Shown here: piece after piece, positions 3,375 to 7,046 of the stretch
Numbering within the stretch: the stretch's first letter is position 1
Layout of the letters: each line of letters opens with the position of its first letter
Source: a virus
Taxonomy: Duplodnaviria > Heunggongvirae > Uroviricota > Caudoviricetes
IMG/VR virus record: IMGVR_UViG_2619619133_000005
Coordinates: 1-7,046 of that record
Length of the DNA stretch: 7,046 nucleotides
Direction: 5' to 3' (one strand)
Made by a program: the position numbers and the translations under genes
The notes under the pieces: model-generated
The model's input: the letters and a program-made list of their open reading frames with translations, nothing else
Told to the model about the DNA's origin: nothing
Databases searched by the model: none

Positions 3375-3411
3375 AACCGCAGACACGCCGTATGCAAGAC
3401 GTGCTGCGGTT
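3375..3411. terminator. Candidate stem-loop terminator between the convergent pin and cargo genes
   Basis: An imperfect ~12-bp stem (AACCGCAGACACG … CGTGCTGCGGTT) starts 1 nt after the pin stop codon. The minus-strand side is followed by a U-rich run (UUUAUAUAAU); the plus-strand side is only weakly U-rich. Confidence 0.3.
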
Positions 3412-3570
3412 GGCTGATGCACTTTCGAGAGTGTATGTATTGAATTATTTCCAGCCGTTACTGATTTTACGTATTTTTTGTATGAGAGGAGTTGCACCAC
3501 CTCTTAAGCATAATTTGTTAGAATCATGGCAGCACAATAGCCATATATCCAATATAAAATACTTAACCTT

Positions 3571-4470
3571 CTAATCATTATGGAGTATTTGATCGCCGTA
3601 TGGCCAGCCATTTTCCCCAGGAAGGGTCATACCTAACATTGGCATAATACTAAGTTGTCCAATGGTAAATCCTAGAGCACTTGTATTACTGATTCCGGCA
3701 TAGGTCATATCAAGGGGGTTAGACTCTGAGCTGGACATAAAAAGATTTCTTGTGCCAATTCTATTCGCCATTGAGAACTGAATATGCCCACCAATTGTAT
3801 TTACGGTGTCCTGAGATATCCAGTTGTTTAACGCGATAAATGGCGCCCGCCACCAGTTAAGCGTGCCATTCTCAAAACGCCCCCTCGTCATCTCAATATC
3901 TTCCCGAAACTGCTGCTTTCTGTCTCCCAAGACTACCGGGGTACCTGTTGTCAGGTCAAGGCAGTCCTCAATTACAAGATTAGTGGGGTTTGATGGGGTG
4001 TTGTAGATCTTAATGATTTTATGTACCTGTGTTCTGAAACAGAATCCGTAAATAATCATCTCCGTTGCTACAGAACGGGGAAAAAACTGGCCAATATCCA
4101 GTATAAATTTTTCCGCGATTCCCTTTGTTAAAACTGCAATTTCATAAAGACTCGGGTAACTATCATAAGTCAACTCCGGCTGCTGAACATCATAATAATT
4201 AACTTCATGTAATGAAGATAATGATACGGCAAGTAACTCCTTCACATTTATACCGATCATTGTTCCTCCTGCAAAGCCGAAACCAAACTCCATAATTTTT
4301 TCCGGAGATAGACGGTATATGTCATTGGAGCGAATAACTGATACCGGAATCGAGAATAGTTTAGGACAGTGATTTGTCATTACACTTTCATGCTGGGTGA
4401 TTCTTGAGTCGCTTACGGCCCAGATACTTTCCCCTTCTTCCCTGTTTAGCCAGCAGGCTATTGCTGTCAT
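3571..4470 (-). CDS. Hypothetical cargo protein, 299 aa, with possible N-terminal-nucleophile (HslV/proteasome-beta-like) hydrolase motifs
   Basis: The start is set at the internal Met (MTAIACWLN…) because a GGGGG ribosome-binding site lies 6 nt upstream; the ORF-track start at 4608 is a 46-codon extension. Motifs seen by eye against my recollection of HslV: Thr directly after Met, AVSDSRIT (HslV IAGDGQAT), SVM…K with Asp-to-Lys spacing of 16, GFAGGT (identical to HslV), and TTGTPVV (HslV ITGNGDVV). The protein has large insertions relative to HslV. Confidence 0.6.
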   Translation of the reverse strand: MTAIACWLNREEGESIWAVSDSRITQHESVMTNHCPKLFSIPVSVIRSNDIYRLSPEKIMEFGFGFAGGTMIGINVKELLAVSLSSLHEVNYYDVQQPELTYDSYPSLYEIAVLTKGIAEKFILDIGQFFPRSVATEMIIYGFCFRTQVHKIIKIYNTPSNPTNLVIEDCLDLTTGTPVVLGDRKQQFREDIEMTRGRFENGTLNWWRAPFIALNNWISQDTVNTIGGHIQFSMANRIGTRNLFMSSSESNPLDMTYAGISNTSALGFTIGQLSIMPMLGMTLPGENGWPYGDQILHND

Positions 4471-4871
4471 TGAAAACCCCCTTTTAAGTAAAAAAATCAG
4501 ATTCAGATAGTGCATACATAATTTAGTCAAGTCATCTCTTTTAAGACGCATTGAGAAATGGTTGCTCAAGGTGCGCCAGTGAACGCGCACGAAAATAACT
4601 TCTTGCATTTCCCATTACACTCTGACTTTAGGGCCGCGTTAGATTTTAACATGGTGGCCGTGCATCCATTTAAATTGGTAATCTGGAGAATGAGTAACGC
4701 TGAATAGATTAACAATCTATGCGACTAACGGCCCTTAAAAGCGCAGCTCATAACATCGAATTTTACCAGTTTAGTCATTTTTAAAAAGTGCCCGAAAAAT
4801 GTTGTCCACGATTTGTGCTCTACGTCCCATCTTGACCTACTCCCTGATAATTCACTCAGAAGGCGGTTAGC

Positions 4872-4901
4872 AATGTCCGTTAAGTGCTCACAACGGACAT
4901 T
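4872..4901. promoter_or_regulatory. Perfect 10-bp inverted repeat with 10-nt spacer (AATGTCCGTT-N10-AACGGACATT) in the long intergenic region
   Basis: Seen directly in the sequence. It has no U-tract on either strand, so it is not a canonical intrinsic terminator. It may be a protein-binding palindrome or an RNA stem. Confidence 0.25.
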
Positions 4902-4951
4902 CAGCCCACTAAATCCGACCGTGTCGCTCAATATGCGGACAGGTTGTAGTG

Positions 4952-5554
4952 CTAACTGCATTGTAGCTGTGAGATTTCACCATCGATGGCTTCTATAACC
5001 TGTTTATAGCGGAGCATGACCTCATCATGAATCATCATTAATCCGCGGCCGTACTCTGTGGCTAGGATTGTGTATCTTTTCAGGTGTGCAAGATGTTCTT
5101 TGTTGCCAGTAATGTCACTTGCAACCTGCGTGGAGTCCAGCCGTTCGATAAGCGCATTATTGCCGCGATAGGAATCAATTAGGCTTCTTGCGCTTGTATA
5201 AAAAGCCACAATTTTTGAGAGTGTTTCTCTATGAACTTCAGGTAGGGATGCCGAGTTGGCTTCATAGAACGTGAAGTAGTTTTGAGTAATGGGGAAAATG
5301 TTATCGAACGGTGAGTTCCGGTCGTATTTTTCGATTTCTTCTGCCATTCTGGCCTGATACAGTTTAATCAGTGAGTCTATTTCCTCTCTGACACCCAATA
5401 GCGTTGTTATACGCTTCTCTCTGGCCGCTGTTGCCTGCTGTTTTGCCTGCTGTTTCACCTGAGTTGTCACTCCTATCATCGTGAAACAGCCACCTAAAAG
5501 AGCTGCTAAAAATGCGGAGATGAGATCTGAATATTCGTGCCAGAAGGTTAGCAT
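4952..5554 (-). CDS. Hypothetical cargo protein, 200 aa, with one N-terminal transmembrane helix and a helical, charged soluble domain
   Basis: The ORF has a hydrophobic N-terminal segment (DLISAFLAALLGGCFTMIGVTT), then a Q/K-rich linker and a helical-looking domain. It sits on the same strand as, and upstream of, the HslV-like gene. The ribosome-binding site is weak (GGAA). Confidence 0.55.
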   Translation of the reverse strand: MLTFWHEYSDLISAFLAALLGGCFTMIGVTTQVKQQAKQQATAAREKRITTLLGVREEIDSLIKLYQARMAEEIEKYDRNSPFDNIFPITQNYFTFYEANSASLPEVHRETLSKIVAFYTSARSLIDSYRGNNALIERLDSTQVASDITGNKEHLAHLKRYTILATEYGRGLMMIHDEVMLRYKQVIEAIDGEISQLQCS

Positions 5555-5570
5555 GGCGAAAATTCCATTG

Positions 5571-5593
5571 GGTTAAATTATGTCTATTTAACC
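5571..5593. promoter_or_regulatory. Operator-like palindrome (GGTTAAAT-N7-ATTTAACC) 17-40 bp upstream of the membrane-protein gene start
   Basis: A perfect 8-bp inverted repeat seen directly, overlapped by a second partial palindrome (AATTATGT/ACATAATg). Its position suits a repressor-binding site in the promoter region of the cargo gene. Confidence 0.25.
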
Positions 5594-5888
5594 ACATAAT
5601 GATACGAAGATACCTTCCAAAATGTTGCTATGACCCCATCTGTTGTTGCCTGGCTGGTGACGTGTCTGGGTATTAGCACCGTGCTCTCTCATTATCTAAG
5701 TCTGGGCCAATCCTCGTTCATAACAGGCATTCACTTCAGTCATGGCAGAAAGGTATGCATGCTGGAGAAGTCATGAAAGAAAAGAAGACTTCTGCCTCGT
5801 TTGTCATCACTGTTATCTTCTCATTGATTATGCAGGTCATAGTGGGGACACACAAAGCTTTGTACTATCCGATAGTGGTTAAGGTGGA

Positions 5889-7046
5889 TCACTCCCCCTT
5901 TTCATCAAGCCAATCCGCCCACCACTGCATCATTTCTCTGCGCTTATCGAGATACTGAGCATGGTTGTAAATACCGCGCACAGATCCGCCGTTGGCATGT
6001 GCCAGTTGCACTTCAATAGCGTCAGCAGGCCATTCGTGCTCGTTCATAATCGTGCTGAATTCATGCCTGAATCCGTGACCGCTTTCCAGACCCTCATAGC
6101 CGATTTGTTTGATCACAAGTAGCACCGCGTTCTCGCAAATTGGCTTCTTCTTATCGTTGCGCCCGGAAAAAACAAACTCTGATACTGGTTTAGTGATTGA
6201 GCTTAGTGTAGTGAGAAGTTCAACCACCTGGTCTGACATCGGGACCACATGAATTTTGCGTCCCTTCATTACACTGGCGTCGATGGTGATAATCCTGTTT
6301 TCAAAATCGACGTTCTTCCATAGCATGGAGCGAAGCTCTTTCGTTCTTAGGGCTGTGTAGCGCAAAACTTTAGTCGCAATGAGCGATACGATACTTCCTG
6401 AAAATGTTGCCAGTGCTTTATTGAATGCCGGGATCTGGTCTGCAGGAAGAAACGGGAAGTTTTTCTTGCGGTATCCCTTCATGGCGTCAGCAAGGTCAGG
6501 TGCCGGGTTATATTTAGCCCTACCAGTGACAATAGCGTAACGGAAAACCTCGCCGCATCTTCTGCGGGCTTTATTTGCTCGCTCCATTGCACCGCGATCT
6601 TCAAATCTGCGGATTACTTCCAGCAGTTGCATCGGCTCAATCTCCTGAATTTCAAGGCCGCCGATGATAGGTAAAATGTCGTCATCAAACATTTTTGCAA
6701 GTTCAGTCGCATACCCTACTGACCATACTTGCTTCTTGTGCTCGTACCATTCCTTGTAAATCGCACTAAATGAATTGTTGTTAGACGAAGCCTTTTTCGC
6801 CTTTACCGGATCGATGCCAACCGAGATGTCTTTCCTCGCAGTCCATGCCTTATCCCTTGCTTCCTGCAAAGTCATAAGCGGATATTTTCCGACGGTCAGG
6901 ATTTTCTCCTTACCGTCAATCTTGTAGCGAAGCTGCCATACCTTTTTCCCGGATACAGGAACATAAAGGTACAGGCCATTACCATCGAGAAGGCGGTATG
7001 GTTTTTCTTTCGGCTTTGCTGCTTCAATCTGCTTAACGGTGAGCAT
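5889..7046 (-). CDS. intS: Phage integrase, tyrosine recombinase of the P4 type
   Basis: 385-aa ORF starting with the ATG at the window edge. The N-terminus (MLTVKQIEAAKPKEKPYRLLDGNGLYLYVPVSGKKVWQLRYK…) is P4-like, and the C-terminal catalytic region has …GHGFRHEFST… and …RGIYNHAQY (His-x-x-Arg and Tyr nucleophile). The intS name is inferred from length and from proximity to dsdC as at the E. coli argW prophage site; it is unverified. Upstream signals lie outside the window. Confidence 0.85.
   Translation of the reverse strand: MLTVKQIEAAKPKEKPYRLLDGNGLYLYVPVSGKKVWQLRYKIDGKEKILTVGKYPLMTLQEARDKAWTARKDISVGIDPVKAKKASSNNNSFSAIYKEWYEHKKQVWSVGYATELAKMFDDDILPIIGGLEIQEIEPMQLLEVIRRFEDRGAMERANKARRRCGEVFRYAIVTGRAKYNPAPDLADAMKGYRKKNFPFLPADQIPAFNKALATFSGSIVSLIATKVLRYTALRTKELRSMLWKNVDFENRIITIDASVMKGRKIHVVPMSDQVVELLTTLSSITKPVSEFVFSGRNDKKKPICENAVLLVIKQIGYEGLESGHGFRHEFSTIMNEHEWPADAIEVQLAHANGGSVRGIYNHAQYLDKRREMMQWWADWLDEKGE

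Follow-up and report, generated by a model that had tools for sequence, protein, structure and literature searches.

Leaders in which base pairing sequesters the Shine-Dalgarno sequence and the start codon are known from the fold-back of the hok mRNA and from the repA leader/CopT of plasmid R1. In type III toxin-antitoxin systems, the hallmark of the antitoxin RNA (ToxI-like) is a set of tandem direct repeats of about 36 nt upstream of the toxin gene. At the scale of whole genomes, 18 defence-island hotspots have been mapped at tRNA loci of E. coli (PMC10121019).

The 7,046 nucleotides analysed here, referred to as the window, represent a degraded prophage located at the tRNA-Arg/intS site of E. 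coli. As a prophage remnant linked to intS and tRNA-Arg, it resembles the modular cargo exchange reported for the integrase- and tRNA-associated hotspots of this species (PMC10121019), and its cargo genes likewise recur with other neighbours and at other sites. Unlike the defence cargo of those hotspots, neither of its two cargo genes matches a known defence family. The genes that frame the region of interest are listed below, pinE, tail-fibre fragments and a truncated dsdC being found to the left of B299.

5889-7046, minus strand: intS
4952-5554, minus strand: A200, a 200-aa cargo gene and the upstream neighbour of the spacer (an ORF with only weak ZorB/MotB-like matches)
3571-4470, minus strand: B299, an HslV-like 299-aa cargo gene and the downstream neighbour of the spacer (start set by 18 homologues)

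The initial annotation presented the sequence between A200 and B299 as a long structured spacer possibly holding a small RNA, an RNA antitoxin or the regulatory region of B299. We estimate at roughly 80% the probability that this spacer is instead a mosaic recombination junction, and not a designed intergenic regulator, with a conserved core that is the decayed control region of a third gene, C337. In its intact copies, the leader of C337 is predicted to resemble hok mRNA and the R1 repA leader/CopT in that a long-range helix buries the Shine-Dalgarno sequence and the AUG while a conserved apical loop stays accessible as a potential contact site, and, like them, it resides on mobile elements, namely plasmids, prophages and integrative elements. 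It differs from them in several respects: opposite its loop, neither an antisense RNA gene nor a promoter was found, it precedes a 337-aa protein with no fold match and not a small toxin or Rep, it shares no sequence or Rfam relationship with them, and the window holds a presumably dead copy only.

Gene modules and breakpoints around the spacer

The 481-bp gap (4471-4951) pointed out in the initial annotation is real: B299 starts at the ATG at 4470 (MTAIACW...), in agreement with 18 homologues of about 299 aa. The longest B299 ORF begins at 4608, a start that PGAP takes in one genome; the corresponding 46-codon in-frame extension, which would reduce the gap to 343 bp, was rejected, being absent from all 18 homologues. 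Between A200 and B299, PGAP annotates no gene. The description of the spacer as structured along its whole length finds no support, with folding z-scores of -1.9 on the minus strand and -1.3 on the plus strand. The GC content is 0.50 in 4839-4951 versus 0.38-0.40 elsewhere in the spacer, which is made up of the following parts.

4471-4595, minus strand: proximal upstream region of B299 (seen in B299-linked loci only)
4596-4776, plus strand: relic of a promoter-like block and a leader of about 140 nt, C337 family (homology to L016-L018 and L019-L021; covariance model)
4777-4845, plus strand: vestige of the first 23 C337 codons, with ATT for ATG, IFKKCPKNVVHDLCSTSHLDLLP (tblastn to C337 residues 4-24, 62% identity, syntenic)
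4833-4838, no strand: junction TGACCT, common to both parental modules (L003 homology ends at 4833, that of the B299/C337 loci at 4838)
4839-4951, minus strand: 3' flank of the A200 module with the perfect palindrome 4872-4901 (accompanies A200 in L003 and L004)
4725-4961, minus strand: 78-aa ORF, not a gene (spans three modules of different histories)

The two cargo genes do not form the pair that the initial annotation took them for. A200 is absent from all examined loci of B299 relatives (L005-L015), and the two other A200 loci contain no B299: in L003 (strain TL20), A200 precedes an IS3 fragment and another gene, of 445 aa, and L004 (PSS-04) has a truncated A200 with other genes behind it. 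Homology to the window stops at 4833 for L003 and 4886 for L004. The DNA homology to L010, L012 and L014, which hold B299 with C337 or a remnant of it, stops at 4838, and in the loci of the closest B299 relatives (L010/L011, L012 and L013) it runs from B299 upstream to that position. The A200 flank diverges much faster than its gene, with 13 differences to L003 over the 119 positions of 4833-4951 versus 8 over the 603 of A200. Among 5426 complete E. coli genomes, A200 occurs in 11, with three different downstream partners, and the A200-spacer-B299 block is rare (7 genomes). This 2.5-kb block, relic included, is found as a unit in three E. coli contexts at 99% identity, the other contexts being beside torT and on a plasmid; such near-identity reflects recent spread and not constraint. 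A200 and B299 are thus independent modules that were joined recently, and the junction between them probably arose by illegitimate recombination.

As for the encoded products, none of the four proteins examined gave anything significant in Pfam, PADLOC, PHROGs or NCBIfam; for A200, PADLOC returns ZorB at E=0.002 and nothing better. B299 belongs to no Pfam (E<=1), PADLOC, PHROG or NCBIfam family, and a sequence search of the PDB gave no match better than E=0.6. Its AF2 model, of moderate confidence (pLDDT 63, pTM 0.70), matches 20S proteasome beta subunits (Foldseek, E~1e-6, TM~0.6 normalised to target), and Thr2, directly after the initiator Met, is nearly invariant among the homologues. Since the predicted fold and this threonine agree, the label HslV-like appears fair for B299 at the fold level, although no sequence family claims the protein: of the features of a proteasome beta/HslV-type Ntn hydrolase, the alpha-beta-beta-alpha sandwich and the post-Met Thr are present, as judged from the model, but a match to the sequence profile is not. 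A literature search on proteasome-like anti-phage genes returned nothing relevant. The B299 relatives examined come from Rahnella, Vreelandella, a Methyloglobulus MAG, a MAG labelled Bacillota, Pantoea and metagenomes, the closest ones (80-86% protein identity) being Pantoea L010/L011 and the metagenomic L012 and L013. In L010 and L012 they adjoin CBASS-like Cap15/CD-NTase and SMODS genes, a context that is no more than suggestive of a defence role of the cargo genes.

The third gene, C337 (337 aa), lies on the opposite strand, with a frame that opens inside the conserved block (4591-4838), and is intact in L012, L014 (a lambdoid prophage of Pantoea sp. Ep11b) and L015, where it diverges from B299 across 307 bp. 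It is truncated in Pantoea L010, with about 128 codons left, and about 23 codons remain in the window. The family (12 homologues, 43-95% identity, with a CxxC...CxC C-terminus) ranges over plasmids, prophages and integrative elements from Enterobacterales to Pseudomonas and Halomonas. On several plasmids C337 is located near umuDC-like genes, and it is usually followed by a gene of 73-76 aa (76 aa in the B299-linked intact loci). An obligate partnership with B299 was considered and rejected, each gene being found without the other. The structural model of C337 is confident (pLDDT 83, pTM 0.82); a fold search of the PDB and of a viral library gave no structural match, and a scan of viral contigs and a tblastn search against a phage collection found nothing for this family.

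Candidate elements of the spacer

The suggestion that the spacer is the regulatory region of B299 holds in part: a promoter is presumably present in the proximal 125 bp, but none is identified with confidence. This region carries a Shine-Dalgarno sequence, GGGGG, 7 nt before the B299 ATG (within 4477-4485). The best conserved promoter candidate consists of TTGACT (4530-4525), an 18-nt spacing and CTGAAT (4506-4501); its core TTGA..N18..CTGA is kept in all six B299-linked copies (6/6), and its PWM score of 5.9 lies below the shuffle median of 9.4. A consensus promoter scan detected no minus-strand site within the spacer, and its only promoter-like site there was located on the plus strand at 4470-4497, which is no more than the shuffles of that scan give. 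A separate PWM scan gave scores no better than those of shuffles. Promoter assignments are weak on both strands. In terms of conservation, the proximal 120 bp or so show 58-75% identity to the relatives, near the baseline of the four-fold sites of B299 (58-64%), and 4591-4838 show about 77% identity to L010 and L012 versus 58-60% at the B299 four-fold sites for the same comparators. B299 would be expressed either from within the proximal 125 bp or through read-through from A200, the latter being equally possible since nothing terminator-like intervenes.

The palindrome noticed in the initial annotation is present exactly at 4872-4901, with 10/10 paired positions and a 10-nt loop, and a perfect stem of at least 10 is reached by 0.9% of the dinucleotide shuffles of the spacer. 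This figure, together with a position 50 nt past the A200 stop codon and the L004 homology breakpoint (4886) at the palindrome centre, would fit a functional site of the A200 module, be it a terminator lacking a U-tract, an mRNA-stabilising hairpin or a recombination site. Such a role is nevertheless unlikely: at the scale of the whole window the stem is not significant (9% of shuffles), and it is not conserved across homologous loci, the right arm carrying two uncompensated mismatches in the closest relative, L003, and L004 lacking the left arm and having a different hairpin instead. Moreover, the sequence after the stem reads GCUAACCGCC on the minus strand and CAGCCCACUA on the plus strand, and the search for a Rho-independent terminator found no U-tract on either strand and no terminator-like site in the spacer. 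The palindrome is best regarded as mildly improbable.

An imperfect inverted repeat of about 15 bp had also been reported. It does exist, but at 4627-4642/4725-4739, the left arm having been placed some 13 nt off; without gaps it amounts to 10 nt at 90%, and nine inverted repeats of this quality, itself included, occur within 600 nt. Its left arm is kept in no relative, and the repeat was rejected as an RNA stem: this arm lies in the degraded -10/TSS region and is unique to the window. The right arm corresponds to an invariant loop motif described below, whose conserved complement is GGCCGU at 4656-4661.

The two mutually antisense ORFs, of 78 aa (4725-4961, minus strand) and 61 aa (4813-4998, plus strand), exist as described, and the first indeed has no convincing ribosome-binding site, no GGAG-like Shine-Dalgarno sequence preceding its ATG. 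This ATG is placed within A200, 8 nt from its end, and overlaps its stop codon, a layout compatible with translational coupling, so one could imagine a real small protein translated in this way. Among all the alternatives weighed here, we give this one the least credit. The ORF extends over three modules that differ in ancestry; its L003 counterpart has 51 aa and an unrelated C-terminus, and in L004 only 32 residues align. The 13 differences to L003 split 4/4/5 over the codon positions in both small ORF frames, and 9 of 44 residues differ, next to an A200 that is 97.5% identical. In addition, the 78-aa ORF has no family match and is not called by PGAP. Conserved small ORFs upstream of B299 were looked for on either strand and rejected: two frames are open in three relatives, with starts, lengths and frame unconserved. 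Neither the 78-aa nor the 61-aa ORF is a gene, and neither is conserved.

The spacer resembles the ToxI-like RNAs of type III toxin-antitoxin systems in being a non-coding stretch upstream of an uncharacterised gene in a defence-island setting. Given the length of the gap, the perfect palindrome and the uncharacterised cargo genes in a defence-island-like context, it could be proposed that an independent small RNA or RNA antitoxin is encoded in it and forms one system with both flanking genes. This proposal has very little to commend it. Unlike ToxI-like antitoxins, the spacer has no tandem repeats and its conserved part is on the opposite strand. The search for a tandem array in 4300-5100 found none except a 10-nt repeat of 2.2 copies inside A200, the direct repeats detected being of two copies and at chance level only; no terminator-like site is present in the spacer, and an Rfam search gave no match at E<=1. 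Furthermore, the flanking genes are no conserved pair, the palindrome and the inverted repeat are unconserved, and the C337 leader, on the other strand, accounts for the sole conserved segment. Taken together, the initial annotation correctly saw an unusually long gap with regulatory sequence and an RNA-structure element inside it, but its particulars fail; the conserved, structure-forming part lies on the opposite strand and belongs to the deleted third gene.

The leader of intact C337 genes

Window positions 4596-4803 (aligned over 212 bp) are 76% identical to the DNA directly upstream of C337 in L016-L018, which lack B299, and positions 4690-4796 (108 bp) are 72% identical to the plasmid copies L019-L021. 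The C337 proteins of these loci are only 63% (L016-L018) and 46% (L019-L021) identical. Because loci that lack B299 carry the same sequence ahead of C337, the leader is that of C337 and not of B299. It is far better conserved than the C337 protein (19 intact copies) and is maintained in Enterobacterales and as far as Pseudomonas plasmids: among 18 distinct intact copies whose proteins are 43-63% identical, 53 columns of the 162 nt preceding the ATG are invariant. The conserved block begins with a -35-like TTGnnn, followed after 17 nt (window numbering) by a -10-like TnTnAT with a TG two positions upstream of it, and continues with the leader of about 140 nt. The -10-like consensus does not have the usual A at its second position, and the PWM scores do not exceed those of shuffles.

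RNAalifold predicts, within the leader, a hairpin (H2, GCAYGG-UGG-CCGUGC) enclosed by a small helix (H1), a helix H3 in which an invariant AUGAUUA pairs with UAGUCAU, the latter being the invariant spacer between the Shine-Dalgarno sequence and the AUG plus the first two bases of the AUG, a helix H4 in which CCUGA pairs with the Shine-Dalgarno sequence itself, and two further helices closing on an apical loop with the invariant UAACGGCCC. In alignment A5, 97.6% of the cells pair versus 24-41% with slid partners, and the proportion is 95-98% in A5 and A8. Four pairs of A5 are changed on both sides, a number reached by 16 of 500 shuffles, the sequences being related. When the copy from a P. koreensis plasmid (L044) is added, in alignment A8, eight such pairs (12 cells) are found and none of 500 shuffles reaches the observed value on any measure, A8 being a set of 19 phylogenetically related sequences fitted to the covariance model, with most paired positions invariant. 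L044, whose protein is about 40% identical, was itself found with the covariance model (R1, built from 18 intact copies) and rebuilds H4-H6 with different bases. The covariation is modest overall. Folded one at a time, seven intact leaders adopt this same helix over the Shine-Dalgarno sequence and the AUG; the z-scores of single leaders, from +0.2 to -2.3, are ordinary.

On the basis of these comparisons, the intact leader probably acts at the RNA level as a translational repressor that sequesters the Shine-Dalgarno sequence and the AUG. In the proposed mechanism, H3 and H4 would close a long irregular helix burying both elements, and translation would thereby be repressed, while the apical loop of that helix would display the invariant UAACGGCCC. 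Rfam gave no match for the leader in five intact loci, and no description of this candidate translational leader was found.

Alternatively, the conservation upstream of C337 could correspond to DNA-level signals such as a promoter, repressor operators and possibly the inverted GGCCGT...ACGGCC motifs, in which case the window copy would be a fossil of transcriptional control. Although the conserved block opens with -35/-10-like elements, the two most conserved motifs are mutual reverse complements, and most paired columns are invariant, so that their pairing may be coincidental to binding sites, we regard this explanation as rather improbable. Indeed, the invariant UAGUCAU is exactly complementary to the invariant AUGAUUA about 90 nt upstream, U-G wobbles are tolerated in the sense-strand reading only (14 UG and 4 CG in H2), and eight pairs change on both sides and yet still pair, L044 re-creating H4-H6. 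Nevertheless, since the pairs are mostly invariant, the sequences related and A8 fitted to the model, part of the conservation may have a role at the DNA level.

Another DNA-level possibility is provided by the Frpo/ssi single-stranded DNA promoters of plasmid leading regions (Masai and Arai 1997, as cited in PMC11541004). The C337 leader resembles them as a hairpin-rich, conserved, non-coding block of 150-300 nt upstream of a gene, and departs from them in that its -35/-10-like block lies outside the conserved helices, which cover the ribosome-binding site. A promoter of the Frpo type, in which a hairpin would rebuild the -35 and -10 boxes in double-stranded form, is not supported: the single-stranded DNA folds of L019 and L022 disagree (z = -2.4 and +0.6) and the promoter-like block is left unpaired, outside any shared hairpin.

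The decayed leader of the window

The elements of the leader can be located one by one in the window copy.

4603-4608, plus strand: -35-like TTGCAT
4623-4624, plus strand: TG, followed at 4626-4631 by the degraded -10-like CTTTAG
4638-4641 and 4676-4679, plus strand: helix H1
4649-4654 and 4658-4663, plus strand: hairpin H2
4690-4696 and 4772-4778, plus strand: 5' arm (ATGAGTA) and 3' arm (TAGTCAT, 2 nt into the next part) of helix H3
4699-4703, plus strand: 5' arm of helix H4
4726-4734, plus strand: loop motif TAACGGCCC, with GCGCAGC at 4741-4747
4765-4769, plus strand: former Shine-Dalgarno sequence, ACCAG

The covariance model R1 matches the window over its full length (positions 4627-4788, plus strand, model positions 1-162) with 78.4 bits and E=2e-17. 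The scores are 78 bits for the window, 121 for L010, in which the gene is truncated, and 137-167 for the intact copies. Of the 53 invariant positions, seven are changed in the window, compared with 0-1 in 16 of the 18 intact copies in a leave-one-out comparison. These changes include a G of the ATG (now ATT), a G of the Shine-Dalgarno sequence (AGGAG to ACCAG) and stem positions. Besides, both conserved T's of the -10-like box are gone (CTTTAG versus TnTnAT), and the minimum-energy fold of the window copy lacks the helix that covers the Shine-Dalgarno sequence and the AUG in intact copies. A full-length match to R1 is thus accompanied by the loss of the family hallmarks, namely an AGGAG or AGGGG Shine-Dalgarno sequence, the ATG and the downstream C337 frame. 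Since the Shine-Dalgarno sequence, the ATG and the reading frame are gone, the window copy is a relic and not a working member of the family, and is presumably non-functional. That its identity to relatives is above neutral is expected, the lineages of those relatives being still under constraint.

The history of the spacer can then be reconstructed as follows. The segment 4471-4595 would be B299's own proximal upstream region with its ribosome-binding site, 4596-4845 would be, on the plus strand, a fossil of the C337 promoter-like block, of the leader of about 140 nt and of 23 codons, and 4839-4951 would be the non-coding 3' tail of the A200 module. C337 would have been deleted from about codon 23 onward when the A200 module joined, and the leader left behind would be inert, its Shine-Dalgarno sequence, ATG, -10-like box and stem positions being mutated and nothing being left to translate.

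It may be asked whether the orphaned relic was co-opted, as a plus-strand transcript or a factor-bound site modulating B299 or the 3' end of the A200 mRNA. The two independent truncations of C337, in the window and in L010, both left the leader complete, pairing is still possible in the window for H1, H2 and most of H4, and the 2.5-kb block that includes the relic moves as a unit. However, that two truncations spared the leader is to be expected by chance, the coding sequence being five times longer than the leader, and the near-identity of the E. coli copies results from their recent spread. Together with the loss of both T's of the -10-like box, a model score lowered by about 60 bits and seven changed invariant positions where close intact relatives have 0-1, these considerations make co-option improbable. 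More speculatively still, the element of about 140 nt might represent a new class of structured regulatory RNA, in which a loop-loop switch between the invariant, complementary motifs GGCCGU in the upstream hairpin and ACGGCC in the apical loop, or a site for a trans-acting factor, would unmask the ribosome-binding site of a plasmid/prophage protein of novel structure, the window copy being transcribed and co-opted as a divergent non-coding regulator of B299; we hold this possibility to be slighter than co-option by itself.

What the window displays is ordinary decay within an island. For the window, a false lead is removed: the "structured" spacer of a defence-island-like cassette is mostly debris of gene exchange, and the annotation of B299 is corrected to 299 aa, not 345 aa. 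The independence of A200 and B299 matters to anyone testing both as a "two-gene system". More generally, long gaps of this kind need homology breakpoints before mechanism. Finally, the leader and C337 form a pair that is a tractable target for work on RNA regulation in mobile elements.

The A200-spacer-B299 block and its occurrence elsewhere

The A200 gene, its downstream spacer and the HslV-like gene B299 (window 3377-5866, compared with L002 and with H4, NZ_CP130669.1) are found with 99% identity at two other places, namely a second chromosomal site, at a prophage end adjoining torT, and a 111-kb plasmid. It follows that this composite is at present mobile as a single unit. Regarding B299 itself, the RefSeq lengths given for window 3571-4608 are contradictory, being 299 aa in NADC1036 (WP_024248228.1) and 345 aa in EC5502 (WP_233337191.1); comparison with homologues supports the shorter form.

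Divergence and breakpoints beside A200

When the window is compared with strain TL20, whose A200 locus lacks B299, 11% of positions differ in the A200 3' flank (4833-4951), versus 1.3% in the A200 gene (4952-5554), with only 3 synonymous codons, and 0.6% in the 334-bp intergenic region upstream of it. So uneven a distribution may point to a patch brought in by recombination and not to drift at the site itself. In the copy of strain PSS-04 (L004), homology to the window breaks at 4886 (L004 6001), that is, at the centre of the perfect palindrome 4872-4901, and a different hairpin, GCGAGT-N7-ACTCGC, lies directly to the left of the L004 breakpoint. The position of the break and the presence of this second hairpin may be due either to coincidence or to hairpin-associated recombination. 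In TL20, A200 has another downstream neighbour:

L003 4296-5633: gene for a 445-aa protein

This protein gives weak matches to Lit, PD-Lambda-2_B and M48 peptidase motifs (E~6e-4), and its gene is preceded by an IS3 transposase fragment.

Left edge of the remnant and Rfam matches

The prophage remnant adjoins a truncated dsdC in the window, whereas in strain NADC1036 the baseplate genes run on instead.

1-537: first ORF, DsdC residues ~3-134 with phage tail sequence fused on at ~383

The DsdC part is recognized by NCBIfam (E=1.7e-74). Outside the spacer, a sub-threshold Rfam match to IS009 (1475-1664, + strand; 47 bits versus a gathering score of 117) sits within a tail-fibre assembly gene, and a second Rfam match, at 5066-5234, is at chance level.

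The C337 family and its leader

The 337-aa C337 family, whose gene is deleted in the window, is represented by:

L012 2387-3400: C337 member
L014 5001-6014: C337 member
L019 5001-5987: C337 member
L043 4087-5112: C337 member

These proteins bear a C-terminal CxxC...CxC motif, and a gene of 73-76 aa is nearly always found 3' of C337; plasmid copies often lie close to umuDC-like, ParA or Rep3 genes. The AF2 model is confident; no structural match to it was found in PDB or BFVD, and no family in Pfam, NCBIfam, PADLOC or PHROG. Two near-invariant, mutually complementary motifs mark the C337 leader, a candidate structured element of which a relic persists in the spacer:

4656-4661: GGCCGU, upstream hairpin
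4729-4734: ACGGCC, apical loop

In the Halomonas copy (L045 ~1340-1450), GGCCGU is kept in one hairpin loop and AUGGCC is found in another. Taken with their complementarity, this suggests that the two motifs are candidates for a loop-loop contact or a common binding motif.
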